In this document: positions 17,771 to 33,440 of the stretch, piece after piece
Position numbering within the stretch: position 1 is the stretch's first letter
Layout of the letters: each line of letters opens with the position of its first letter
Origin: Planctomycetota bacterium
GTDB lineage: Bacteria > Planctomycetota > B15-G4 > JADJEK01
DNA length: 46,804 bases
Reading direction: 5' to 3'
Assembly (NCBI GenBank): GCA_044225365.1
Contig: JBGAIQ010000045.1
Coordinates: 1 to 46,804, forward strand
Program-made: the position numbers and the translations under genes
The notes under the pieces: model-generated
Told to the model about the DNA's origin: nothing
What the model saw: the letters and a program-made list of their open reading frames with translations, nothing else
Databases searched by the model: none

Positions 17771-19915
17771 TCAGCGCCCGACCTCCTTCGTGAATCGACC
17801 GCGGAGGGTCACCGCATGCGTTGCCGCGGCGGGGACGATGATCTCCTTCGGTTCGATTTCGAACCGCAACGACGGCGGACGGTCCGTCAGGTCCCTGAAG
17901 TATGCAGCGACCTCGTAGCGCCCTGGAATGAGCGCCGCTTCGAAGTCTGTACCGCCGGATCGCTCACGGCTCATCGAGAATCCATCCACCTCCGACTCGC
18001 TCGCGCCGCCGGAATCCTTCAACGGCCGCAGGTAGAAGTGGATCTGGAAATAATCCGGCTTCTCGCCGGACACCGCGTCACCCAATTCGAAGGGATCGAC
18101 GTGGATCGTGACCCGAGTCCGACTCGGCGCGAAATCCCGCAATGCCACGATTCGATGCTCGTTCGCTGCGATGAGAATCGGCTGCGGGACGAGCTCGTAC
18201 GACTGGATCACGCCCCCCAAATCTCGCTCGCTCCAGCTCTGCGCGTAGAGCCGGTACTCGCCGGGCCAGACACCCGTGATCCGAAACCGCCCGAGAGAGT
18301 CGGACCTGCAAACGAGCGGGAATAGCGTCGTGAAATCCGGAAATGGGTCGGGCAGACCCATCCCTATGGAGAGCTGGATCCTCGCGCCGGACACCGGTTC
18401 GCCGCGAGCATCACGAAGCGTGCCCTCGACGATGCCGCCGACCTCCAGGACGATCTCGAGATCGTCCAGTCCGACGGCGCCGACCTCGCGCGTATCCTCG
18501 TGCGAAAGGAAGCCCTGGGCACCCGCCCAGATCGTCACTTCACGTGGACGATCGATCCAGGCTTCGAAGCGACCGCTGTTTCCCTCCCCCGAGGTCTCTC
18601 GAGGCGTCATCGTCATGAACCGCACATCACCGTCCTTCGAGTCGATCGAGACTTGGTACGACTCGAGCGGAAGTCGGGGATCCGGAGAAAGGACCCTGCC
18701 GCGGATCCGCACGGGCATCTCCCCCTTCACGAGACGCAGGAGCGCCGAATCGTCTCCCGTCCGCGCCGATCCCACGACAGCGAAGCCCGAGTCCGCACGC
18801 TCGGCTCGCAGCTTCCATTCTCCGGGTGTCAGTCCGATGATCGAGAACTCGCCATTCGAGTCGGTCGTTCCCGATGGGGCGACGAGGACGAATCGATCCG
18901 CGATCTCGGGAATCGCCTGTCGCTCGTTCGCGGGGGCCCCTGCGCGGAGAAGTACACCGTCGGACGCACGAACCGTATATCCGACGAGAGGCTGATCGAA
19001 TTCGTCGACGACACGGCCGTGAATCGTTCCACGCGATTCGAGGACGATCTCGATCTTCCCCGTTGGCGGTACCGCGCGCCGAACCGCGACGAATCCATCG
19101 GCATGGAGGATGAGCGGCGCGCCGATCTCGACGGGCCCGAATCGAAAGTGCCCCTCGGAATCACACCGAGTCGAACGAGGATCCCCGTTGAGCCCTTCGA
19201 CGATCGTCGTCGCGATCGGCCGTTTCTCCGCATCCGTGACGACTCCGCTGACGACGATGCCATCCTCCAGCTTCAACGAGCCGAGATCGAAAGGCGATGC
19301 CGATGCGGTCGCTGGAATCTCGAATTGGCGCAACGGCGCGAACCGAGGGTGCTGGACCGAGAGATCTGCGGAATCGAAGGACGGTCGGTCGATCGTGAAT
19401 TCGCCATCATCGTTCGTGACCGCATTCGCTTCGATTCGTCCTGGCCCCATCGGGTCGTTCGTACGGATTCGGACGGATGCTCCCGCAACGACTCCTCCGC
19501 GCGAATCGACTACGCGACCTCGAACGCTCGGTGCTTCGACGAACCAACACGTTGGCGCGCTCGCTCGCGTCGTCGATCGCGGCAACCTCACGTCGAAGTA
19601 GCCTTTCACGTGGACTCGAAGCGCAGCCGCATCGACCGCCGTCGTCGCAACGAAATGGAAGAGGCCGTCGCTCTCTCGCGAGCACTCCGTTTCTCTCGCC
19701 GGGGAATGTGGATCCACGGACCGAACGATCACGGAATCGATCGGCGCCTGCGTGCGGAAGCTCCTCGCATCGAACCACGCCTCGACGCCATCCGCCGCGG
19801 AGGCCCCCGACTGGATCGAAACGAGCGCGATCACCGTGATCACACAAGATTGCAACGCGTGGATGATTGCGTGACGTAGCCGCGACTCGATTCTTGGGAT
19901 CCCGTCGATCGACAT
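17771..19915 (-). CDS. Exported protein with carboxypeptidase-regulatory-like (transthyretin-like) repeats
   Basis: Repeated G-x-V-x-D-x-x-G-x-P…A-x-V…T-x-x-x-G-x-F units; N-terminal hydrophobic segment ending ASAA; start uncertain. Confidence 0.75.
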   Translation of the reverse strand: MSIDGIPRIESRLRHAIIHALQSCVITVIALVSIQSGASAADGVEAWFDARSFRTQAPIDSVIVRSVDPHSPARETECSRESDGLFHFVATTAVDAAALRVHVKGYFDVRLPRSTTRASAPTCWFVEAPSVRGRVVDSRGGVVAGASVRIRTNDPMGPGRIEANAVTNDDGEFTIDRPSFDSADLSVQHPRFAPLRQFEIPATASASPFDLGSLKLEDGIVVSGVVTDAEKRPIATTIVEGLNGDPRSTRCDSEGHFRFGPVEIGAPLILHADGFVAVRRAVPPTGKIEIVLESRGTIHGRVVDEFDQPLVGYTVRASDGVLLRAGAPANERQAIPEIADRFVLVAPSGTTDSNGEFSIIGLTPGEWKLRAERADSGFAVVGSARTGDDSALLRLVKGEMPVRIRGRVLSPDPRLPLESYQVSIDSKDGDVRFMTMTPRETSGEGNSGRFEAWIDRPREVTIWAGAQGFLSHEDTREVGAVGLDDLEIVLEVGGIVEGTLRDARGEPVSGARIQLSIGMGLPDPFPDFTTLFPLVCRSDSLGRFRITGVWPGEYRLYAQSWSERDLGGVIQSYELVPQPILIAANEHRIVALRDFAPSRTRVTIHVDPFELGDAVSGEKPDYFQIHFYLRPLKDSGGASESEVDGFSMSRERSGGTDFEAALIPGRYEVAAYFRDLTDRPPSLRFEIEPKEIIVPAAATHAVTLRGRFTKEVGR

Positions 19916-19961
19916 CGAATCAGCACCTCTCGAGGTCTTCCGCGGTCCACCGCGGCCGTCC

Positions 19962-22265
19962 TCACTTCGCCTCGAAATGACCCCGCACGTCGAACGCGCA
20001 CGCCTCGCGCTCGGGCACGTCGATCGTCGCCGGGTCGACGACCCTCTTGGCACGAAAGGACCGCTGCCCGCTCCCGTGGAATTCGACCGCGTCGACGACC
20101 CATTCGTAGCGACCCGGGGCGACGTCCGGGAGGTCGATCCGACCGCCTTTCGACCCCATCACGAAATGGTGGGACTCGACGCGATCGCTCCCGACTCTTA
20201 GCAGAGTGAGTCTCAGCTCGCATTCGCGAGGCGGCGCGAGACCACCCTCTCGATCCCACGGCGCGATCGCGAGCGTCACCTGCGAGCGCAACGCGGCGCT
20301 GTCGGTGAGATCGATGCGGCGCGCCTCGAAATCGGTGAGCGTCGTTTGCTGCGGCATCACTACGAGCTCGCTGTCGATCCAGCGCGCTCCGGAGTACCGA
20401 CCCCGCCACGCCTTGATGCCGTAATTCCCCGCCCCGAGCCCGCCGATTCGGTAGTGGCCTGTGCGATCGGTCCTTCCGATCCCACGATCCTCGCGTGCGG
20501 CGCTCGGACCGCTCGCCTCGAAGCCGATGTCGACGCCTTCGAGCGGGCGCCCGTGCGGATCGCGCAGGAATCCCTCGACGACCGCGCCTTCGTCGAGCAG
20601 GACGTCGAAACCGTCGCGACCGAGCGCAGGCACGACGCAATCCTCCGAGACCGCCTTCTTGAATCCGTCGCCTTGGCATTCGATCGCGATCGTTCGCGGG
20701 CGGTCGATCCATACTTCGAAAGCGCCGGTGGCCGCATCGAGGACCCGTCCCTGGCGGATCACCGGGTCGCTCGCGCCTTCTCTCTCGGCCGCAGGCAGGA
20801 CGGCGGCGATGCGAAACTCGGGAACGGGTCGTCCGTCGATCCGCGAGAGCGCTCTACCACGCACTCGCACGGGGGATTCGCCGGGCCGCGCCCGCAGGAC
20901 GATCTCGGCGTCGGCCGTGGAACCCTCGCCTTCGATCCCGAAGCCGCGGCTCTCGCTCCTCGCGCGCAAGCGCCAGATCCCGGGGACGACCCCGTCGATG
21001 ACGAACGATCCGTCCTTGCTGCTCGTCACTCTCGACCGCGGCTTCATCTCGCCATCGGCAAACTGCGCCTGCGATTCCGAAAGACCGATCGCGCGCGACC
21101 GCTCGCGCGCTTCCACCGCGAATCCTTCGAGCGGCAAGCCCGCTTCGTCCAGCACTCGACCACGGAGCACGCCGAGCGGAACGAGAGCGAACTCGATCCC
21201 CTGCGACGCCGCCGATGCGGAAACGAGGAGCAGCTTCTGCGGAACGAACCCGTCCACCGCGGCGATGAGTTCGCTACCGTCCTGCACCGGTCCGAACTCG
21301 AAAGCACCCGTGGCGTCCGTCGCAGTCGATCGCGGATCCGTCCGACTACGAATGCGCGCGCCCGCGATGGGACGACCGAGGACTCGCGGAACGGCGGTCG
21401 CGTCGGTGCACGCCACGACCCGTCCCCGAACCACGTATCCACGCTCCAATACGATGTCGGCGACGGAACGCGGCTCCGAGCCGAGGAACTGCGCGTACTC
21501 GCCGTCGCAGACTCCCGGCGCGAACCCATCGCGCGAGGCGACGATCCGCTGGCGCTGCCACGGCCGTACCTCGATCGCATAGCGTCCGTTCGGATCCGTG
21601 AGGATGGGATCCGCTTCGACATCGCCGGAGTTCGGCGGGTAGATCTCGATGCGTGCACTCTCGATCGGCGAACCCTGGGCATCGACGACCCGCCCGCGGA
21701 TCTCGACGAGTCGCCGCAATACGACCCGTTCCGGAAGCTCCGCCGTGCCGCCCGCGGGCACGCTGCCGATCGTGAAGTGCGCGGCCAGGACGTGCGAGAA
21801 GCTTCCGTCGCGACGCAGAGGCGCATGAAACCATCCCGACGGACCGCGCGCGACCGATAGGAATCGTGTCGTGCTTCCGCGCGGCGTCACTTCGACGCGG
21901 ACGATCGGCAGCCGTTCGCCGCTCTCCTCGTCGAAGACGTCGAAGTAGCTCGGGATCCCGTCGTAGGCAGTCGAATCGAAGTCGACGGGCAGGTTCGCCT
22001 CGGATGTCGTCGGCGCCGCATTCACGGGTTCTTGCGGCCGCGCATCGTTCGTGTCCGTGAGCGTGCGAACGATCGAACCATCCGGCGAAGCGACGGCATT
22101 CGCCGCCTCAGCGGGTGTGCTCGGGCGAAGATTCTGAGGAGAGTCGACCGGACCGCGCGTCCACAACAGCATGCCGACCGCGACCACGAGGCCGATCGCG
22201 GCGACGCCGACCAGCGATCGGTCGCGGTTGCCTCGCGGTTTCGAAACGCGGGGTCGATCGTTCAT
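19962..22265 (-). CDS. Membrane-anchored protein with carboxypeptidase-regulatory-like repeats
   Basis: Start MNDRPRV, one transmembrane helix (LVGVAAIGLVVAVGMLLW), repeated GRVVD-x-x-G-x-PI units; resembles the adjacent 17771-19915 gene. Confidence 0.8.
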   Translation of the reverse strand: MNDRPRVSKPRGNRDRSLVGVAAIGLVVAVGMLLWTRGPVDSPQNLRPSTPAEAANAVASPDGSIVRTLTDTNDARPQEPVNAAPTTSEANLPVDFDSTAYDGIPSYFDVFDEESGERLPIVRVEVTPRGSTTRFLSVARGPSGWFHAPLRRDGSFSHVLAAHFTIGSVPAGGTAELPERVVLRRLVEIRGRVVDAQGSPIESARIEIYPPNSGDVEADPILTDPNGRYAIEVRPWQRQRIVASRDGFAPGVCDGEYAQFLGSEPRSVADIVLERGYVVRGRVVACTDATAVPRVLGRPIAGARIRSRTDPRSTATDATGAFEFGPVQDGSELIAAVDGFVPQKLLLVSASAASQGIEFALVPLGVLRGRVLDEAGLPLEGFAVEARERSRAIGLSESQAQFADGEMKPRSRVTSSKDGSFVIDGVVPGIWRLRARSESRGFGIEGEGSTADAEIVLRARPGESPVRVRGRALSRIDGRPVPEFRIAAVLPAAEREGASDPVIRQGRVLDAATGAFEVWIDRPRTIAIECQGDGFKKAVSEDCVVPALGRDGFDVLLDEGAVVEGFLRDPHGRPLEGVDIGFEASGPSAAREDRGIGRTDRTGHYRIGGLGAGNYGIKAWRGRYSGARWIDSELVVMPQQTTLTDFEARRIDLTDSAALRSQVTLAIAPWDREGGLAPPRECELRLTLLRVGSDRVESHHFVMGSKGGRIDLPDVAPGRYEWVVDAVEFHGSGQRSFRAKRVVDPATIDVPEREACAFDVRGHFEAK

Positions 22266-22361
22266 CCTGCGAGCGCTCCGTTGCGAACCGCGTGAGTTCG
22301 CAGATCGCACCGTTGTTATTGAGGATTGGAACCGGCGCCGCCGATCGCGACAATCCCCCCC

Positions 22362-23318
22362 ATGCGAAGTGTCTGCCTCTGGGGTTCTGCCGAGCACGCG
22401 ACCGCCGACGACGAAGCACGCCTTCTGGAAGCGATCGGGGCGATCGGCTGTATCGCGACGGCGCTGCCGCGTGACGCCGCGCCGCCGGAATCGGCGCACG
22501 CGATCGTCATCAACACCAAGCGTGCGGTCTCGAAGCAGGATCTCGCGGCGATGCCGTCGCTGCGGCTCGTCGTCACCACCACGTCCGGCTACGACCACAT
22601 CGACCTTTCGGCGTGTGCGGCGCGCGGCGTGCGCGTGGCGCGCTGCGCGCTCGCGCGGCGCGACGCGGTCGTGGAGACCAGCGTCGCGATGGCGCTCGGC
22701 CTGCTGCGTCGCCTGCCCGAACTTCTGCGCGACGCCGAAGCCGGCCGCTGGGTGCGCAAGGAAGTGAACGCGCGGCGCATGCCCTCGCTCCTCGGAGCGG
22801 CAGGTCGCACGATCGGGGTCGTCGGCATGGGCGTGATCGGGCGCCACGCGCGGGATGTGTGGCAGGGTTTCGGCAACCCCGTCGTCGCGTGCGATCCCGC
22901 CGTTCCCGGCCTCGCCCCGCTCGACGACGTGCTCGCCCGTGCCGACGTCCTCACCCTGCATTGCTCGCTCACTCGCAGTTCGCATCGCTTGCTCGATGCC
23001 GCGCGCATCGCGAAGCTGAAGCCGGGCGCCATCGTGATCAACACCGCGCGCGGCGAATGCATCGATCTGCCCGCGCTGCTCGCGGCGAAGCACCTCGGCG
23101 GCATCGGCCTCGACGTCTTCGAACCCGAACCTCCCGGCGATCTCGCGGCGATCGCGCGACACGACAACGTCTTCGTCACGCCGCACTCGGCCGGTTATTG
23201 CGACGACCTCTCCGCGCGGATCGAACGCGAGGTGGTGGTCACGCTCGGTGCGTTCGTGCGCGGCGAAGCGATTCCCAACGAGGTCACAGCGCTCGCGGAC
23301 GGCCTGCCTGTCACTTGA
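22362..23318 (+). CDS. D-isomer-specific 2-hydroxyacid dehydrogenase family protein
   Basis: SGYDHID, GVVGMGVIG (Rossmann fold), INTARG, LDVFEPEP and TPHSAG, which supply the Arg/Glu/His catalytic set. Confidence 0.9.
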   Translation: MRSVCLWGSAEHATADDEARLLEAIGAIGCIATALPRDAAPPESAHAIVINTKRAVSKQDLAAMPSLRLVVTTTSGYDHIDLSACAARGVRVARCALARRDAVVETSVAMALGLLRRLPELLRDAEAGRWVRKEVNARRMPSLLGAAGRTIGVVGMGVIGRHARDVWQGFGNPVVACDPAVPGLAPLDDVLARADVLTLHCSLTRSSHRLLDAARIAKLKPGAIVINTARGECIDLPALLAAKHLGGIGLDVFEPEPPGDLAAIARHDNVFVTPHSAGYCDDLSARIEREVVVTLGAFVRGEAIPNEVTALADGLPVT

Positions 23319-24015
23319 TCGGCGCCGGGAAGTCCTCGCCGACCGCCTCGGTCCGCTCGCCGCGGATCGCGAGGTTCTTGAACATCCCCGTGTCGTCGAA
23401 GCTGCCGACGCCGATGCGGCCGGCGGAGATCGTCGTGTCGACGGCTTCGAGGATCGCGTGCTCCATGTCGTCGAAGAATACGCGGATCGATCCCGTCGTC
23501 GCATTGCGCACGATGCGAACGTGGTGCCACGCCCCGTTTCCCCACGTCACCCCGGTCGACTGCGGCGGCAGCAGATTACGCCGCGCCGCGTGATCGACGA
23601 GGAACACATTGTGCGCGTTGGCGTCTGGCGTCGACGCAAGGTGAACGTAGTAGAAGCGCTCCCGCGACTCGAAGCCGAAGAAGAAGCAGAGATCGCGATG
23701 GGCGTACTCGGGCCCCGTCTGCTTCACGTCGACGTCGAGCTGGAAGTCGCGGAAGGTCGCGCCGCGAACGAGCGCGATGGAATGGGGTGAGCGGAACGGC
23801 GGCTCGTACTTGCTGTCGCGCACGAGCTCCAGCGCCGCGTCCGCGTTCGCCACTCGCCACGCCGCGGGCTCCGTGAACGAGAACGAGGTCTCGGCCGTCG
23901 GCACCGCGAGCAGCGGGGATTCCGCCGGCGGCGCGGACCCGCAGGCCGCGAACGCAAGCAGGGTCACGAGGCCGAGGCCGGCGGAGGGACGCCCACCGAT
24001 GCATCGTCCGAACAT
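23311..24015 (-). CDS. Putative lipoprotein with a ConA/LamG-like (DUF1080-like) domain
   Basis: Lipobox-like LAFAA-C; FRDFQLDVDVK, FYYVH, WHHVRI and GRIGVGSFDD motifs. Confidence 0.75.
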   Translation of the reverse strand: MFGRCIGGRPSAGLGLVTLLAFAACGSAPPAESPLLAVPTAETSFSFTEPAAWRVANADAALELVRDSKYEPPFRSPHSIALVRGATFRDFQLDVDVKQTGPEYAHRDLCFFFGFESRERFYYVHLASTPDANAHNVFLVDHAARRNLLPPQSTGVTWGNGAWHHVRIVRNATTGSIRVFFDDMEHAILEAVDTTISAGRIGVGSFDDTGMFKNLAIRGERTEAVGEDFPAPIK

Positions 24016-24061
24016 GGCTCGAATCCTCCGTTTCGGTTCGGGAGCGCCAACGGCCGATAGT

Positions 24062-24099
24062 TTGCAGCGGTCGCGAAGCCGTGCTACATTTCGCGACCG
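24062..24099 (+). promoter_or_regulatory. Putative sigma70 promoter of the ABC operon with an overlapping inverted repeat
   Basis: TTGCAG-N17-TACATT with an extended -10 TG; a perfect inverted repeat CGGTCGCGAA-N12-TTCGCGACCG (24068-24099) straddles the -10 element. Confidence 0.5.
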
Positions 24100-24173
24100 G
24101 TCAGCGGACGGGATCCCGGCGCAGGATCCTCGTCCTTCTTTCGGTTCGCGACAATCAGAATCGGGAATCTCGA

Positions 24174-25334
24174 ATGAGCCAATCATTTCGTCTCGTGGCG
24201 GCGTTTGCGACGTTCCTCGTGGGGATCACGGTATTGAACGGAAGCCTGAACCAGCGGTGGTTCGAGCACCGCGAACGAGCGAAGATGACGGTCGGCTATC
24301 TGCCCGTCACCTGACACCTCACGTGTCCAGTCACCAGTTGGGTGACTCAACATTCTGAATCGGGAACCGACTTCGTGTCGAAGCGGTTCACGGGCTTTCC
24401 GGCGATCGTCGACGCGATCAACGCGCGCGACCTCGATGCGACGTTCATGCTCGCACCGCTCGCGATGGTGCTGGCGCGCGAGGGCTCGCGACCGGTTCGC
24501 ATCGTCCACCTCGGCCACCGCGACGGAACGGCGCTCGTGGTCCCCAAGGATTCGCCCTACAAGACGTTTGCCGACCTGCGCGGGAAGAAGATCGCGATCC
24601 CGCATCGCTACTCCAACCAGCGGATCCTCATCGAGAAGCTGAAGGATCAATTCGGATTCACGGACAACGACGTCACGCTCATCGACTACGCGCCGCCGGA
24701 GATGCCCGCCGCCTTGAAGGCAGGGTCGTTCGACGCATTCATCGTCGGTGAGCCCAACTGCGCAAAGGCGGAGCTCGGTGGTTACGGGCGGGTGATGTAC
24801 CTCACGAAGGACATCTGGCCCAACTTCATCTCGTGCGTGCTCGTCGTCGCAAAGGACGCGATCGACTCCAAGCCGGGGCTCGTCCAAGAGCTCGTCACAG
24901 GGATCACGTCGAGCGGTTACTGGATCGATCAGGGACCACAGGACAAGATGCTCGAGGGCATCTACCTCGATGACGATCCCGCCCTACCCAAGGATCAGAT
25001 CGGGTTGAAGGATCCCTTCGAGCGGCAGAAGATCATCGTCATGAAGAAGGACTTCGGCCTTTCGACGCGCATGCAGGCCGCGCAGATCGGTGGCCTCTTC
25101 TACGGCCAGCCGCCCGACCTGTTGAAGTACGTGCTCTCGTCGCCTCCCGACCGTGTTCGCTACGTCGATTTGATGCTGGCGAAGAAGGATTTCGAGGAGA
25201 TCCAGAAATACGCCGAGCGCCTCAAGTTCTTCTCGAAGCGCCCGGTGACCGAAGCGGATCCCTTCCGCTTCGAGGACTACACCGACGATCGATTCGAGAA
25301 GGGCAGCATGCGCGCGATGCCCTATCGGAATTGA
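24174..25334 (+). CDS. NitT/TauT (CmpA/NrtA/SsuA-like) ABC substrate-binding protein; probable selenoprotein (386 aa, U47)
   Basis: Track ORFs 24081-24314 and 24342-25334 are in the same frame, separated only by TGA 24312-24314. The joined protein has an N-terminal anchor, MTVGYLPVT-U-HLTCPV, then LDATFMLAPL, GHRDG, DLRGKKIAIP and GEP. A SECIS-like hairpin follows the TGA. Confidence 0.85.
24323..24353 (+). promoter_or_regulatory. Putative bacterial SECIS element
   Basis: Upper stem AGTCACC (24329-24335) pairs with GGTGACT (24341-24347); loop AGTTG has G then U at positions 2-3 and begins 21 nt after the UGA; lower stem GTGT/ACAT. Confidence 0.75.
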
Positions 25335-25348
25335 CGAGGATTCGAACG

Positions 25349-26143
25349 ATGCGCTTACGCACCTGGCTCTTGGGAATCGTCGGCATCGCGATCACGCTCG
25401 CGGCCTGGCAGATCGCGACGTGGGGCAACGGGATCAACGACATCCCAGGCCCGTGGCTGTCCTTCAAAGGCCTGATGGAAATCGCCCGCGCTGGCGTGCT
25501 GTGGCAGAACTGCGTGGCGTCGATCTTCCGCGTCGCGTGGGGATTCTGCCTCGCGGCGGGTGTCGGCATCCCGCTCGGCGTCGCCATGGGCTGGTGGCTC
25601 GGAACGCGGGAAGGCGCGAATCCAGTCGTCCAGATCCTGCGTCCGGTCTCTCCGATCGCCTGGTTGCCGTTCGCGACGGTGATGTTCGGCGGCAAGGACG
25701 TGGTCCTGGGCGGCCGCACGCTCTTCGAATCGTCGGACCTCGCTGCAATCTTCCTGATCTTCCTCGCGTCGCTCTTCCCCATCGTGACCGCGACGACGTC
25801 GGCGGTGCGATCGATCGACCAGAAGTTCCTGCGCTCAGCGGCGAATTTCGGAATCGAAGGCGCAGAGTTGTTTCGCCGAGTGATCCTGCCTGCGGCAATG
25901 CCACAGATCCTCACTGGCCTGCGTCTCGCTCTCGGAATCGCATGGGTCGTGATCGTCGCCGCCGAAATGAACGGCGTACAGCACGGTCTCGGCTACCAGG
26001 TGAACGACTCGCGCAACAACCTCCGCTTCGACTACGTCGCAGCGGCGATGATCGTGATCGGATTCACCGGCTTGATCCTCGACACGCTCATGACGCGACT
26101 CGAGAACGCCTCGCTCTCGCGCCGGGGGATGACCCGCAAATGA
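25349..26143 (+). CDS. NitT/TauT-family ABC transporter permease
   Basis: GAGGA RBS; LRPVSPIAWLP, EAA-like loop (SAANFG…LFRRVILPAAMPQILTGLR), AAEM…GLGY. Confidence 0.92.
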   Translation: MRLRTWLLGIVGIAITLAAWQIATWGNGINDIPGPWLSFKGLMEIARAGVLWQNCVASIFRVAWGFCLAAGVGIPLGVAMGWWLGTREGANPVVQILRPVSPIAWLPFATVMFGGKDVVLGGRTLFESSDLAAIFLIFLASLFPIVTATTSAVRSIDQKFLRSAANFGIEGAELFRRVILPAAMPQILTGLRLALGIAWVVIVAAEMNGVQHGLGYQVNDSRNNLRFDYVAAAMIVIGFTGLILDTLMTRLENASLSRRGMTRK

Positions 26144-26895
26144 ACGCCAAGATCCGCATTCGCAAAGCGAGCAAGACGTTCGCCACGAAGAAGGGCGACG
26201 TGCATGTGCTCGACGGCGTCGACCTCGAAGTGCGAGAAGGCGAGTTCCTCGCGATCGTCGGCCCCTCGGGCTGCGGGAAGTCGACGCTCCTGAACTGCAT
26301 GGCTGCGTTCGAGCACATCTCGAAGGGATCCATCCAGATCGACGGCGAAGAGGTCGAGAAACCGTCGAAGAAGCGCGTCTTCGTGTTCCAGGAGACGGGG
26401 ATCTTTCCTTGGTTCTCGGTGTGGGACAACATCGGCTTCGGGCTCGGCAAGAAGATGCCGTTCGACGAGAAGCACGCGATCGTGATGAAATACATCAAGC
26501 TCGTCGGCCTCGACGGGTTCGAGAAGGCGTATCCCTCGGAGCTGTCGGGCGGCATGAAGCAGCGCGTCGAGTTCGCGCGCGCGCTCGCGGTCGATCCCGA
26601 CGTGCTCTACCTCGATGAGCCGTTCGGCGCGCTCGACGCGTTCACGCGCATCGAGATGCGGCGCGAGATCGTGCGGATCTGGCAGGAGACGAAGAAGACC
26701 TGCATCCTCGTCACCCACGACGTGGAGGAGGCTCTCGAACTCTCCGACCGCGTGGCGGTGATGACGAAGCGTCCCGCGACGATCCACTCGGTGATCGACA
26801 ATCCACTACCGCGCCCGCGCGACACGGACCATGCCGATCTGCGTGCCATGAAGCATCAGATCTGGCAGATCCTCGGCGTCGAACGCCGCAAGTAA
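26140..26895 (+). CDS. NitT/TauT-family ABC transporter ATP-binding protein
   Basis: ATGA overlap with the permease; Walker A GPSGCGKST, signature LSGGMKQR, Walker B LYLDEPFGALD, VTHDVEEA. Confidence 0.95.
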   Translation: MNAKIRIRKASKTFATKKGDVHVLDGVDLEVREGEFLAIVGPSGCGKSTLLNCMAAFEHISKGSIQIDGEEVEKPSKKRVFVFQETGIFPWFSVWDNIGFGLGKKMPFDEKHAIVMKYIKLVGLDGFEKAYPSELSGGMKQRVEFARALAVDPDVLYLDEPFGALDAFTRIEMRREIVRIWQETKKTCILVTHDVEEALELSDRVAVMTKRPATIHSVIDNPLPRPRDTDHADLRAMKHQIWQILGVERRK

Positions 26896-27012: not shown

Positions 27013-28311
27013 GTGCCTTCAGTCCATCGCATCGATCGGGACTACGACGGCGAAACATCGCGTCGCAAGCTCGCGAATCTCGCCTTTCTCGAGTCCGACA
27101 TCACCCTGCGAAGCACGACGTTTCGCGGCATGCCGGACGTCGTGCATCTGCTCACGACCGAGGTGTGCAATCTGAAATGCATCATGTGCCCGCGCAGCGA
27201 ACGACTCGGGACCCGAAGACTCGGACGCGGCGTTCTCGCGCGGACCCTCGATGAGCTATTCCCGACCGCGCGAAAGGCCATCGTGTCACCCTTCCACGGG
27301 GAACCGCTCGTTTCGGACTTCGACCTCGTCCTCGAGAAGGCGCGCGAATACGGAGTGAAGCTCGACATCGTCACGAACGGAGTGCTGCTCACCTCCGATC
27401 GATACCGGGACGCCGCGGCGACGCTCGACTGCGTCAACGTGTCGGTCGATTCGCACGTGCCCGAGATCTACGAGCGCATCCGCGATGGCGCCCGCTTCGA
27501 GCGCCTCGAATCGAACCTGCGTGCGATCCGCGAGGCTCGCCGGCGCGCGGCGGACGGCGTGACCCTCACCCTCTCCGCCGTGGTGATGCGCTCGACGCTG
27601 CCCCATCTCGATGGATTCATCGACTTCGCGGCGGAGCACGGCGCGGACGGAGTGGTGCTCCAGCCCCTGCGCCAGTTCCAGAAGCGCCTTCCGGAGGAGG
27701 ATCCGCTCGGCGAGGCCGTGCCGGCCCTGCCGCCCGCACGCGAAGCCGCGTGTCCGCGAGCGGGCGCGCGCGACTCGGCCGCAGCGCGCGCGTTGCGCGC
27801 TCGCTTGCTCGGCCTCGGCGAACGCGCGCGGGCTCGCGGGATCAATCTCTACTTCGGCGATTTCTCATTGCCCGCGATCGAGTCCAGACCGGTGAGGCGC
27901 AAGGTGGAGAACACCGTCGATTCGCTCGAGGCCTGTTGGTTCGTGATGCGGAACTTCGCGCTGTTCTTCACGGGGGACGTCTACCCCTGCTGCTACCCCA
28001 CCGATCACGTCCTCGGCAACGTGATGCGCGATGCACCCGCTTCGATCTGGAACGGTCGCCGCGCGATGGCTCTGCGTCGCGCGCACTTCGAGCGAACGGG
28101 AACCGCCTTCTGCAACGGCTGCCTCCACGCCCCGTACCTGCCGGCTCGAAAGGCGGGGATCGCGGGATCCCTGCTCCGCCAGTCCCGACTCGCCGCGGCC
28201 CACGTCGTTGGGATCGTGAGCCGAAGGATCGGTTCGGCGCGGCCAGAACCGGAACGGCCGGACTCGCCCACCTACGCGATGCCGCAGCGTCCCGTCACCG
28301 AATCACATTGA
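27013..28311 (+). CDS. Radical SAM protein with a SPASM/twitch-like domain
   Basis: CNLKCIMC (CxxxCxxC), HGEP, VTNG, VSVDS; C-terminal C…GDVYPCC…LGN…IWNG…C-x-x-C. Confidence 0.9.
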   Translation: MPSVHRIDRDYDGETSRRKLANLAFLESDITLRSTTFRGMPDVVHLLTTEVCNLKCIMCPRSERLGTRRLGRGVLARTLDELFPTARKAIVSPFHGEPLVSDFDLVLEKAREYGVKLDIVTNGVLLTSDRYRDAAATLDCVNVSVDSHVPEIYERIRDGARFERLESNLRAIREARRRAADGVTLTLSAVVMRSTLPHLDGFIDFAAEHGADGVVLQPLRQFQKRLPEEDPLGEAVPALPPAREAACPRAGARDSAAARALRARLLGLGERARARGINLYFGDFSLPAIESRPVRRKVENTVDSLEACWFVMRNFALFFTGDVYPCCYPTDHVLGNVMRDAPASIWNGRRAMALRRAHFERTGTAFCNGCLHAPYLPARKAGIAGSLLRQSRLAAAHVVGIVSRRIGSARPEPERPDSPTYAMPQRPVTESH

Positions 28312-30817
28312 TCTCGCCGGCCTTCAACTGGATGGGTCGCCGCGTTTCCTTGCCCATCCCGTCGTAGAACACGATCCACTCCGCGGCATCGGAGACCGTG
28401 ATGACCTCGCTGCCGCCCTCGAAGATCTTCCCGCGCTCGAACGACGTAACGGACTGGCGCTCGTGCCGGTACATCTTGAGGGGGTGCTGCATCGCGTCGA
28501 GCATCGTGAATTCCGTCATCGTCTTGTCGACGAGATCGAGACGCACCTCACGGCTGAGGCTCACGGTGAGTACGAGCGGCGCGACGGAATCGCGCGGTGG
28601 GAGCGGGAACACGTTCGAATCGAGCATGTCCGTGCGGTCGACGCGCAGCTTCACATCCCGTGACGGCACGTCGACGAGCTCGAAGCGACCCTCATCATCG
28701 GTCACGGCGGACGAACCCAGGGCGGAGTCGCAGAAGCGCATGCCGTTCGCGTCCTTCGCTGCCAGGATCATGACCTCGACGTAGACCGTCGCACCGACGA
28801 CCGGCGCGCCGTGGCGATCGACGATCCGGCCCGGCAGCTTCTCGCGAAGCTCCCCTTTCGGGAAGCGGATGACGACATCCTTGCGGCCCGCGTGCACCAC
28901 TCCGCCCTCGACGATCCACGCGCGATGTGGATCGATCGCGAGCAGCTCGTAGTCGCGATCGAGGAGTCCCTCGAGACGGAATCGACCGTGATCGTCCGCG
29001 GTGGCCTCGATCCGCAGCATCCCGCCACCCCTCACGACGTTCTCCGCGATCCAGAATCCTTGTTCGGACGATGCGAGGGGCGTGGCTTCCGCGAGCCACA
29101 CGCGCGCCTTCTCGAGCGGCTTGCCTTCTTGATCGAGCACGATGCCCGACATCGACAACGGTTCCTCGGCGATGCGCAGTTCGACGAATTCCGGCCATGG
29201 CGCAGCCGCGGGGCCAGGATGATCCATCCGTACCGGCAAGAACCCCTTGGTCGCGGCCATGAGCTGCTCGGGCGGCGATTTCAGGTCGTATTCGAAGTGG
29301 AAATGGCCTTCGGCATCGGAGGACGTGGGCACACCGTCGAGGCCGAGCCGCACGTCGGGGAGGGGCTCGCCGAGCTTTCCGCGCACGATGCCGTCGAGCT
29401 TGCCGCGTTCGAGGAGCGTGTGCTTCAGCACGAACCTAAGGTCCCGCGCCGGGAATTCGTCGATCGTTCGCGACGCACTCGAGAATCCGGCCGCGAGAGC
29501 CTCGATCGTGATTCCTTTCGTCGCCGGCACGTGGTCGATCGTGAACGTGCCGTCCGTCGCGGCCTCCTCGAGGAAGCCCTTCACGCGGGTGCGCGCGGCA
29601 TCGGTTCCGAGTGCGACGTAGATGCGATCGTCGAAGGTCAGACGCAGTCCAGCACCGCCGATCGGACGCGAGTCCTCGTCGACGACGACGCCCGAAATCT
29701 TCGCCGCGGGCGCGCCGAGCACGATCAGCGGGGTCGAGCTCGCGGTCTCGCCGACGTAGAACTCGGGATCGCCGATCAACGCGTAGCCCGCGTCCTTGCA
29801 CGCGACGTTGAACTCGCCTTCGCCGACCCGAAACACGAAGCGACCAGCAGGATCGGACGTTGCCGTCGCGGATCCGATCGCGTTGTCCATCGGACCCGAG
29901 GAACTCGTCGCCGTGAGCACGACGCCGGGAATCGGTGCGCCACTCGGATCGAGGAAGCGCCCCGCCTGCTCGTAGACGACGGACGTCGGGGTACTCGGCG
30001 GATCGGCGGGTGTCGCCGGGGCCTCCATCGCCGTCCGCTCCACCTCCGGAGCCACGAGGGCGGGCTTCTCGTCGCTCACGACGGCGGGCGCGCGAGCATT
30101 CTCCTGCCCCTTCGAGGTTCCTCCGATCGGCTCCGTATGCCCCGAGTTCGTCTTCCAGAGGACGGCTGCGACCAGAGCGAGCACGGCGACGCTGGCGATC
30201 GAGAACGCTTTCACGGTGAGGACTCCAAAGACGGCGGCGATCGGCGGGATGCTGGTAGAGCAAAGCGGCACGAGCGAAGCGAGCCATGCTGCGCGATCGC
30301 CTCGTTCCGTGGCATCGAGTTCTCGTCTCAGGTGCGCGAGAGCGCGGGCGAGACGCGAGTCGATCGTCTTCACGGGGACTTCGAGCCGCGCCGCGATCTT
30401 TCGCGGCGGCAAGTCTTCGAAGAACCGCAGGAGGATGACTTCGCGATGCGCGGGGTCGAGGCGCTTCACGGCATTCATCAGGACGAGCTGCGCCTCGAAC
30501 TTCGCTGCCGTCTGCGCGAGAGGATCGGTCGCTTCCATGTTCGATCGAGCTGCGGTCGCGATCTCGCGCGCTCTGCGTCGAAGCTCCTTGCGATGCTCCT
30601 GACGCGCCTCGTTCCGCAGCACGCTCCTCAGCCACGCGCGGATCGAGGCCGCCGCGCCACTCCTGGGCGGATGCTCGATCGCGCGAACGAACGTCGATTG
30701 CGCGAGATCGTCGGCGAGATGCGCGTCCTTCACGAGGATGCGCGCGAGGGATCGCACGGCGTCGCGGTGCTCGAGCAGCGCTTCGGGGCGCAGGGGATCT
30801 TCGTCCATGTTCAGCAT
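28295..30817 (-). CDS. ECF sigma factor fused to a transmembrane helix and carboxypeptidase-regulatory-like repeats
   Basis: AAGGAGG RBS (start 30817 or 30808); sigma2 ADDLAQSTF…AWL, sigma4 [12 protein letters not shown]…[19 protein letters not shown]; one transmembrane helix; G-x-V-x-D repeats. Confidence 0.88.
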
Positions 30818-30968
30818 CGTCCTCCTTGCATGCCGCCGTTCCGAGATTCCCCTCACGAAAATCCTGTCGGAGAGCCGCCTCGACGGGGAAGCGGCGTTCG
30901 TGTCAACTATCGAGTGGCGCCTGCCCATCCGCGCCTCCGACCTCGTTCGTATCGACACCAAGAGCGCA

Positions 30969-33440
30969 ATGAACCACGTCGCACGGCCTTCCCCGCCGCG
31001 CCCGCCTTCTTCCGTCTCGCACCTCGTCCCCGCGATCCTCGTGACGGTCGTCTCGGCGATCACGCCGACTGCGTTCTCTCAAGGGTGCGCCCCAGATTCC
31101 CTGCCGTTGTCGAAGGCGCCAATCGTGGCGCTCGACCCTTCCACGGTCGCGCTCGGCTCGTTCGACGCTTCGACCGTGTTGCAAACGGCTCTCGGCGGCG
31201 GGTCCATCAAAGTCACGGTCGCGCTCGGCGTCGCGGGCGGCGGCATCTTCGGGACCAAGGCGCTCTCGATTCCGACCGGCAACGCCGTCGCGATCTACCC
31301 GAGCACCGGATTCCCGCTCCCGCACGGCACGATCGAGATGTGGGTGAAGCCCGTGAAGTCGCCGCATCGCGTCGATCTCTTCAGCTTGCGCGGCGCGGCG
31401 TCGCTCGACGGCGACGGCAAGTCCGACCTCGTGTTCGGCGAGACGACGCCGAGTCCGACTCCCGCGAACTCGACGCTGCTATTCGAGGATTCCTCGCCGC
31501 TCGGATTCTCGCTCTCGACGGTCACGACGATGGCGCCGCGCGGCATCGCTGCAGGCGATCTGAACGGCGACGGGATTCCGGACCTCGTCATCGCGAACAA
31601 CGCAGCGAACACGCTACAGAGTCCGCTCACGCCTGCCGTGCCCGGTGAAGTCCACCTGTTCTTCGGTCCATTGAATTCGGGCGCGCCGCTCACGACCCCG
31701 AACGAGGTGCTCGAGGTCGATCGCGCGCAGGGGCTCGTGCTCGCCGATTTCGACCTCGACGGATTCCTCGACATCATCGCGGGTTCCTATTCGCCCGAGA
31801 CCGACCCGTTGTGGGGCTTCTCCAACGACGGGGCCGGCAACTTCCAACGCATGAAGCTCCAGCTCGGACTCGCGCCCGTCGAAGGCGTCGCCGCGGCGGA
31901 CGTCGATCTCGACGGCATCCTCGACGTCCTGTACGCGAGCCTCGACACCGTGAAGAAGAGCCGGGTGTGCATCGGGCGCCTCTCCGCGCTCGGCAAGTAC
32001 GAGCTCGGCGGACTGGGCAGCAAGTTCTACGACCTGAATTCCCCCGCGCTCGGAGCGTCGCTCGGCGACGTCGATGGCGACGGCTGGCCGGACGCGGTGC
32101 TCGCCCGCACTCTCGACGGCGAAGGCTCGATCGCGATCCATCGCAATCACGGCGACAGCGCACCGGGGGTGTTCGATGCAGCCGCGAACATCGTGCTGCC
32201 CACGACGCGACCCTTCACGCTGAACGCGACGCGCGACGTGAACCAAGATGGCGCGCTCGACATCGTGGTTGCGAACTGGCGCGATGGAATCGTGACGACG
32301 CCGACGTCGGAGGTCCTCTTCGGCCCGTTCTCGTCCGGCAATGTGACGAAGCAGTCGTTCGCCGTGGACGACGCCGTGAGCTTCGCCCTTGGCGACATCG
32401 ACGGGAATGGAACGAGTGATCTCGTCTTCCATTCGGCGAGCGCGACGAAGTCTCCGATCTTCCTGCTCGATTGGAACGGTGCCCCGCTCGGCGGAACCTT
32501 GGGTCAGGGTATCGCATCGCCGAGCGGCACGTTGCCGAGCCAGCCGACGATCGGCAATCCGAGCGGCGAAGGCGCCGGAATGATGGTCGCGTTCGGCGGG
32601 ACGTCAGCGTACGGCAGCGTGCACGTCTTCCCGAACTCGTTCGAGCTGTTCAAGGAGAACGGAGCGCTCGTCTTCGAGATCGTCGATTCGACGGGCAGCC
32701 GGCATCGCGCCAGCGTGACCTTCCCGCCGACGAACGACGCGTACGCCGTGAACGGCTTCCATCACGTCCAGGCCGAGTGGGACGCCGCGGCCGGCGTCGT
32801 CGAACTTCGCGTGGGGCATCCCACGCTCGGAACGAAGGACACGAAGACCGGACCCGCATTCGCGATCACGGGCGTGCAATCGGCGATGCGCCTCGGCTCG
32901 GATCCCGACAATCAATCGCGCGCGGCCGGTTGGCGGATCGACGACTTCCGCATCTCGTCCCTGCGGCGCAGCGAACTCGACTTCGATCAGGACGGAATCG
33001 ACGACGACTTCGACACCTGTCGCTTCATCCCGAATCCCGGGCAGCAGGATTCCGACGGCGATGGGATCGGCGACGCGTGCGAATACTGTCAACAGAGCCT
33101 TGGCTACCAGGGCCCCGGCGTGCTCACCCTCTCGGTCTGCGGGTCCCCGCTCGCGCTCGGCGCGACGGCCGCGATGCGCTTGAAGTGCGGGGAGCCGTTC
33201 GGCGCGTTCGTTCTCGTGCTCGGCGGCACGGCGCAGCTCACGCCGCTGTTCGGCGGCACCCTGATTCCGGGCGCGCCCGCGAACCTGAAACAGGCGTCGT
33301 TCGACGCGAGTGGCGGCTTCGCGTACGCCTTCAGCGCGACGCTCTCTGGCATCGACGTGTACGCCCAGGCGATCGGCGAGGACTCGAGTCAAGCGCTTGG
33401 CGTCGCACTCTCGAACGCGGTGAAGCTCCACTTCCCGTGA
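30969..33440 (+). CDS. Secreted FG-GAP/VCBS repeat protein with a LamG-like domain, thrombospondin type-3-like repeats and the shared C-terminal domain
   Basis: About seven D-x-[ND]-x-DG-x-x-D repeats; LamG motifs [13 protein letters not shown] and IDDFRIS; DQDGIDD…C…[16 protein letters not shown]. Confidence 0.85.

Follow-up and report, generated by a model that had tools for sequence, protein, structure and literature searches.

We describe here a gene in a 46,804-nucleotide (nt) stretch of DNA from a Planctomycetota bacterium (GenBank assembly GCA_044225365.1, contig JBGAIQ010000045.1, positions 1 to 46,804 of the forward strand; the whole stretch is called the window below). The gene, at 24174..25334 (+), encodes a NitT/TauT-type substrate-binding protein of an ATP-binding cassette (ABC) transporter, lies just upstream of genes for a permease and an ATPase, and is interrupted by an in-frame TGA (24312-24314) that, judging from its relatives, is very probably decoded as selenocysteine (Sec, U). 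A first inspection of the bare sequence (the sequence-only reading) had proposed a hidden NitT/TauT-type selenoprotein with a U-x-x-x-C motif here, and the Cys/TGA column among homologs, the sel genes, the recurrence of the TGA and a hairpin downstream of it, all described below, bear that proposal out.

The gene and its product

The features of the cassette are as follows.

24174..25334, +: complete gene for the predicted selenocysteine-containing substrate-binding protein (reading frame, Pfam NMT1_2, alignment with 36 homologs, AlphaFold2 model)
24180..24251, +: N-terminal hydrophobic helix (residues 3-26; DSSP helix in the AlphaFold2 model), read as a putative signal anchor
24312..24314, +: UGA codon, predicted U47, opposite an invariant Cys in 36/36 full-length homologs
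24315..24326, +: H48-L-T-C51 codons, for the invariant residues that partner U47 where helix 1 begins (alignment columns; helix 50-59 of the model)
24329..24347, +: hairpin resembling a selenocysteine insertion sequence (SECIS), with a stem of 7 base pairs (bp) (24329-24335/24341-24347) and loop AGUUG (24336-24340), which begins 14 nt 3′ of the UGA
24516..24518, +: H115 codon (motif LGHRDGT), candidate site residue, invariant, equivalent to the His in GHHEGN of PDB 3UN6
24834..24836, +: C221 codon (motif FISCV), candidate site residue, invariant, equivalent to the second Cys of CCVLV in 3UN6
25332..25334, +: true stop codon TGA (reading frame)
25331..26143, +: ABC permease subunit, likely start ATG 25349 (Pfam BPD_transp_1 at 1.1e-21)
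26140..26895, +: ABC ATPase subunit, its ATG overlapping the permease stop (ATGA) (Pfam ABC_tran at 3.4e-33)

From ATG 24174 to the stop at 25332-25334 the frame has TGA 24312-24314 as its sole internal break, and with that codon read as U it encodes 386 residues containing MTVGYLPVT-U47-HLTC51PVTSW, exactly the peptide that the sequence-only reading had drawn from a single frame broken once. That reading also expected gene callers to cut the gene short, as has happened: the mechanical list of open reading frames (ORFs) splits it into 24081..24314 (77 amino acids, aa) and 24342..25334 (330 aa), and the public protein collection holds its product only as a 319-aa piece. Relatives in the same collection are often 320-340 aa (among the matches listed), and the named records of organisms that carry the TGA form are N-terminally truncated products of 324-332 aa with generic ABC binding-protein names. 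Cultured carriers include Engelhardtia mirabilis Pla133 (locus L017), Rohdeia mirabilis Pla163 (L068) and Paraliomyxa miuraensis (L033). The codon at 24312-24314 is covered by contigs from four runs in three studies and is unaltered among the differences listed (40 of 74). A look for expression turned up no listed RNA run.

The protein is a membrane-anchored (predicted) NMT1/NitT-TauT ABC substrate-binding protein. Pfam NMT1_2 (PF13379) matches it at 9.3e-29 (101.4 bits vs a cut-off of 24.7) over residues 33-253 and so spans the TGA. The AlphaFold2 model (mean predicted local distance difference test score, pLDDT, 92.3; predicted template-modelling score, pTM, 0.87) has its N-terminal helix at 3-26, strand 1 at 37-42 and, after the loop that contains U47, helix 1 at 50-59. 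The N-terminal helix and strand 1 both lie 5′ of the TGA, and the downstream piece accordingly lacks an export segment and the first strand, as had been read from the sequence. The nearest solved relative is 3UN6 both by profile (2.1e-38) and by fold (template-modelling score 0.88 normalised to the target, root-mean-square deviation 2.8), and the top fold matches are 3UN6, CmpC/NrtC domains, SsuA, TauA and NrtA. In NCBIfam release 20 no curated cut-off was reached and no model is specific to this family: SsuA_fam, the best among the SsuA/TauA/NrtA/CmpA equivalogs, scored 96.7 against a cut-off of 163.5, and the TauA models scored 36.2 and 35.4 against cut-offs of 304 and 490.

Some relatives of the binding protein (P0150, P0158, P0175, P0182, P0202 and P0246) are fusions within proteins of 640-1416 aa; D-H or H-type motifs stand at the Sec position in all of them but P0150, which has T-N. 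To judge by these fusions, the binding-protein module may serve as a sensor domain too.

Predicted selenocysteine forms, cysteine forms and the hairpin

A homolog search returned 2848 proteins at E <= 1e-10, the best 120 of which were listed; these comprise full-length forms of ~375-415 aa and forms of ~300-345 aa that cover 80-86% of the query. The alignment was built from the 36 full-length forms, with the remaining 84 of the 120 (mostly of 80-86% coverage) set aside, and position 47 is Cys in all 36, within an invariant P44-V-T-C-H-L-T-C-P52. A scan of one genome per species found at least 585 relatives, from which the best 80 loci were kept. In these best 80 of at least 585 loci codon 47 is TGA in 46, TGC in 18 and TGT in 16, a TGA share that is not inflated by the search, since one of the two patterns used in the scan could match nothing but Cys forms. 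The 12 residues before codon 47 and the HLTCP after it are conserved in all 80 loci, and C51 is present in 81/81 sequences (the 80 loci and this gene). A hydrophobic stretch occurs in the in-frame segment before the motif in 42/47 TGA genes and 32/34 Cys genes, and some aligned homologs have leaders that resemble the lipoprotein type. Tabulated in this way, as the sequence-only reading had recommended, position 47 is Cys or TGA only, never Trp, Arg or a variable residue; nor is the TGA unique to this assembly, given the 46 loci and the contigs of the three studies.

In an even sample of the phylum the family was found in 24/301 genomes, and the 26 matches in those 24 comprise 19 with one TGA (anywhere in the match) and seven with none. 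On a quick maximum-likelihood IQ-TREE tree (79 rows, two short rows having been left out) the Sec/Cys label changes at least eight times, five of these changes being forced by well-supported branches. Repeated switching between the predicted Sec form and the Cys form is as expected for a true Sec/Cys family. Genome G037 contains the binding-protein cassette in both forms, Cys and TGA (L048 and L061). The TGA copies L063 and L086, from bins labelled Pseudohongiellaceae and Glaciecola, are sisters of the planctomycete copies L062 and L079 with high support, a placement that points either to horizontal transfer or to an error in binning.

The 17-mer that forms the SECIS-like hairpin, or a compensated version of it, occurs in 44 of the 47 TGA genes (46 loci plus this gene) and in none of the 34 Cys genes. 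The peptide VTSWVT is encoded by 42/47 TGA forms vs 9/34 Cys forms, and among the genes that encode it the Thr codon is ACC in 42/42 TGA genes vs 1/9 Cys genes, the Ser codon is AGT in 42/42 vs 1/9, and the Val codons of the TGA genes are always complementary to one another (GTC/GTG in 39, GTG/GTC in 3). From this codon usage the putative SECIS appears to freeze the peptide VTSWVT. Pairing across the TGA set amounts to 94.7% of 301 cells, with four pairs altered on both sides, and none of 500 shuffles was as high; the slid controls gave 22-52%. In the Cys set 64.1% of 231 cells are paired, and 354 of 500 shuffles were as high. This comparative hairpin signal is strong and lends independent support to the predicted Sec.

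The source genome (6.53 Mb, 94% complete) contains selA (486.6 bits), selB (346.5 bits) and selD (361.5 bits), all above their curated cut-offs, together with a tRNA-Sec of anticodon TCA; all four of the genes selA, selB, selC and selD, for which the sequence-only reading had advised a search, are there. The selA gene adjoins selD at G000:C90:85984-88375 (loci L001 and L010). The selD gene has an in-frame TGA of its own (..SSCAG-U-AAKLPPGD..) with an 8-bp hairpin, loop GUGAA, ~20 nt downstream, and so SelD would itself be a selenoprotein in the source genome. Across the set, selA was found in 40/46 genomes with the TGA form and in 21/34 with the Cys form, and the Pirellulaceae isolates without selA all have the Cys form. 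Because the gene's own stop is TGA, this codon is not reassigned genome-wide.

Several observations count against decoding as Sec. The fold of a single 70-nt sequence is unremarkable (z = -1.06; matched or bettered by 30 of 200 shuffles), and no Rfam family, the bacterial SECIS models included, matched positions 23000-25500 at E <= 1. The canonical hairpin is missing in three of the 47 TGA genes (L078, L080 and, by one mismatch, L032), and selA was not found in six of the 46 TGA genomes, all six being metagenome bins of 3.1-4.8 Mb whose completeness is not given. Since related genomes are kin, the shuffle counts above (0 and 354 of 500) and a Fisher p of 0.015 overstate independence and are not probabilities. 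As to the genes that lack the canonical form, L080:2851-2895 has a different hairpin of 6 bp with loop GUG, and L078:6166-6210 has no obvious hairpin; the sister of L078, L077, has Cys.

Neighbouring genes, candidate site and alternative explanations

The permease gene adjoins the binding-protein gene in 78/80 loci, and the ATPase is present in 77/80. When the 4995 ORFs of the 80 loci were clustered all against all, nothing common was found beyond the cassette and its antisense shadows, and the best other neighbours were Fpg (8 loci), a Ser/Thr kinase (7) and a Fer4/NrfD protein (5). No carbon monoxide dehydrogenase (CODH) gene is among the conserved neighbours of the cassette in the 80 loci. 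Among 76 aligned permease sequences no column is conserved at >=60% as Cys or His. The permease stays below the SaoP cut-off (127.4 vs 295), as the ATPase does below that of SaoA (236.7 vs 360). Directly 3′ of the cassette in the window lies a radical SAM/SPASM gene (27013-28311, +; best NCBIfam match TIGR04311, 77.3 bits vs a cut-off of 400), which we considered as a partner and rejected; it has one weak match in the 80 loci and is a local coincidence.

Beyond it, 28295-31063 (-) is a 922-aa frame, putatively a single gene, that combines regions 2 and 4 of an extracytoplasmic function (ECF) sigma-70 factor (residues 98-246) with CarboxypepD_reg repeats; two more large CarboxypepD_reg proteins are encoded at 17771-20053 (-) and 19962-23504 (-). 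Just upstream of the start codon the intergenic DNA contains a terminator-like hairpin followed by a T-rich tail (24110-24130, +), and a promoter/terminator scan of the region gave nothing beyond the shuffled expectation (terminator-like sites, 4 vs 2.8).

In the full-length alignment (36 homologs) H48, L49, T50, C51, H115 and C221 are invariant, and alignment with 3UN6 puts a His at position 47, GHHEGN opposite GHRDGT and CCVLV opposite SCVLV. The loop after strand 1, which holds Sec47 and which the sequence-only reading had placed at the ligand site, presumably lines the ligand cleft in proteins of this type. When 1.84 billion representatives were searched by profile, 215 proteins matched at E <= 1e-30, of which the 149 listed were added to the alignment; among the matches listed, 80 have letters at columns 47, 115 and 221, and these divide into 60 with C, D or H at 47 together with H115 and C221, six with none of the three, and 14 that are mixed. 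Sister subfamilies keep C47 without C51 (CNLTLP, CHLLLP) and retain H115 and C221. It is possible, and we propose it tentatively from these columns, that Sec47, H115 and C221, perhaps with H48/C51, make up a candidate metal or soft-ligand site in the cleft. The sequence-only reading had suggested a selenol/thiol site of U47 and C51 for a soft metal, a metalloid or a chalcogen species; the columns above point to a putative site that takes in H115 and C221 as well. The lack of a conserved Cys or His in the permease favours a selenolate/thiolate-histidine capture site over bare soft-metal import.

According to PMC13592312, 3UN6-like binding proteins beside clade B CODHs model with a metal on two Cys and one or two His, and PMC6344411 was the first to tie that transporter type to clade B CODHs. 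For SaoX, 10.1101/2022.07.06.499078 reports conserved Cys, a CC pair among them, that come together in the cleft. A bolder version of the proposal, which we hold with less confidence still, is that Sec47 could be a first-shell metal ligand and this protein a member of a larger “metallo-binding-protein” group with C/U, D or H at position 47, which might include 3UN6 and perhaps the transporters adjacent to clade B CODHs; the selenolate would then tune the extracytoplasmic capture of small C1, N or S species. Weighing against a metal centre, the AlphaFold2 model is least confident over residues 41-50 (mean pLDDT 75), one subfamily keeps C47-H48 with Ser at 221, and the zinc of 3UN6 may be an artefact of crystallisation. 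Moreover, neither a riboswitch (no Rfam match for a riboswitch or leader at gathering score in 11 related loci) nor a conserved accessory gene points to a ligand.

Our preferred reading can be put as follows. The UGA at 24312-24314 would be decoded as Sec, guided by the hairpin at 24329-24347, and Sec47 would replace the otherwise invariant Cys in the loop after strand 1. With H115, C221 and possibly H48/C51 it would form a thiolate/selenolate-histidine site that binds a zinc-like metal ion, such as 3UN6 has, or else a soft ligand, and this site would capture a small substrate outside the cytoplasm, to be handed to the permease and ATPase. Taken as a whole, as a Sec-containing NitT/TauT-type binding protein with a SECIS-like hairpin and a putative site, we consider this explanation likely, with good confidence.

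It is very improbable that the TGA is a real stop, be it a nonsense mutation, an assembly error or the mark of a pseudogene, with the ORF from GTG 24342 acting alone or being non-functional. The annotations do take it so (a 319-aa product here and 320-340 aa in many relatives), but the codon recurs in 46 of the 80 loci with protein conserved on both sides, the SECIS-like hairpin is confined to the TGA forms, the downstream piece is without the anchor and strand 1, and the codon is unaltered among the differences listed for the contigs of three studies. Equally hard to credit is a readthrough of the UGA as Trp or Cys, or an altered genetic code, for which we found nothing specific in favour; the gene itself ends in TGA, homologs have only Cys and never Trp, and the Sec machinery is complete.

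Two other explanations accept the Sec and differ as to its use. One takes U47 and C51 as a redox-active selenylsulfide pair that captures or processes a thiol, persulfide or chalcogen covalently, with no metal. Redox selenoproteins typically have a nearby resolving Cys, and DszB, an enzyme with the substrate-binding-protein fold, has its nucleophilic Cys early in the chain; C51 is present in 81/81 sequences at the start of helix 50-59, and DszB structures are among the fold matches of the model. PMC13188914 states that most Sec motifs are UxxC or CxxU, which counts for such a pair, but the spacing here is UxxxC and not UxxC. We think this explanation unlikely, because C47 is kept without C51 in sister subfamilies that retain H115 and C221, and because 3UN6 has a His at the Sec position and a bound zinc. 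The other explanation, to which we give rather less credence, is that a soft metal cation (Zn, Ni, Cu, Cd or Hg) is the cargo and the cassette a metal importer. The site is rich in Cys/Sec/His and 3UN6 was deposited with zinc, but NitT/TauT permeases are known for anions and small organic molecules, and the permease here has no Cys/His column at >=60%, unlike SaoP, which has Sec at the gate. The SAO precedent, as far as its accessible description goes, ties Sec in binding proteins to metals, and nickel import was proposed for the related clade B CODH-associated transporters in the available portion of PMC6344411; against this, PMC13592312, likewise available in part, argues against nickel for related transporters.

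Relation to known systems and biological meaning

Sec-containing binding proteins are already known, and the present family differs from them in motif, gene context, lineage and prevalence. The sequence-only reading had named SaoB of the SAO locus as a precedent with a CU dipeptide in another gene context, which agrees with the accessible text of 10.1101/2022.07.06.499078. SaoB, as it is described there, is an ABC binding protein that gene callers truncate, like the protein described here, and it has Sec in a predicted pocket, as is proposed for ours; unlike ours, it has the CU dipeptide, where the motif here is U-H-L-T-C, and its kinship with other ABC binding proteins is remote. The SaoB model (NF040727) gave no match to our binding protein at E <= 0.01. 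As far as is described in the same material, SaoP, the partner of SaoB, has Sec at its gate, whereas the permease here has no conserved Cys.

By profile score SaoX (NF040735; 39.7 bits, below its cut-off of 300, vs no match for SaoB) is the closer precedent. SaoX, an extra substrate-binding lipoprotein of the clostridial SAO locus, is extracytoplasmic, as is predicted for the protein described here. It is described as a relative of ABC binding proteins whose structures resemble 4NMY and 2X26, and both of these structures are among the fold matches of our model. SaoX is only occasionally a selenoprotein, with a rare Sec in a UxP motif (PMC13188914), whereas here Sec is the predicted majority form (46/80) and the motif is U-H-L-T-C-P; SaoX also belongs to a nine-gene, anaerobe-only locus, and the present cassette consists of three genes without a conserved accessory gene beside them.

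The ligand-binding component 3UN6 of an ABC importer of Staphylococcus aureus, deposited with zinc, shares the PHRYS, GH..G and C-V-L-V motifs with the family; it differs in having a His at the Sec/Cys position and no C51, is 22% identical and is not a selenoprotein. The NitT/TauT binding proteins adjacent to clade B CODHs, which PMC6344411 and PMC13592312 describe as 3UN6-like proteins with a modelled metal, may be related to ours. NrtA, CmpA, SsuA and TauA belong to the same superfamily, with the same fold and with permeases and ATPases of the type found in this cassette, but the NrtA/CmpA-like domain of CmpC has no Cys at any Cys column of this family in our alignment.

Among the 119 selenoprotein families tabulated in PMC13188914 (2026) are SaoB, SaoX, SaoP and BtuF in a Sec form; an NMT1/NitT-TauT family with UxxxC is not one of them. 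A literature search found no paper on the family as a selenoprotein and, apart from the SAO preprint, nothing relevant among the papers listed, supplements and subscription papers lying outside its reach.

If the decoding is as predicted, hundreds of genes are likely mis-annotated, given the at least 585 relatives in species-representative genomes and the TGA in over half of the best 80. Sec-containing transporter subunits would then reach beyond the anaerobe-restricted SAO locus to Planctomycetota, Acidobacteriota and Myxococcota, cultured strains included. The at least eight Sec/Cys switches would amount to a natural experiment on what selenium contributes at a ligand-capture site, and the family would tie into 3UN6 and the clade B CODH-associated transporters and the question of their substrate. 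If the proposed metal ligation by Sec47 holds as well, it would be a use of selenium unlike that of any characterised selenoenzyme, with cultured planctomycetes and a myxobacterium among the lineages concerned.

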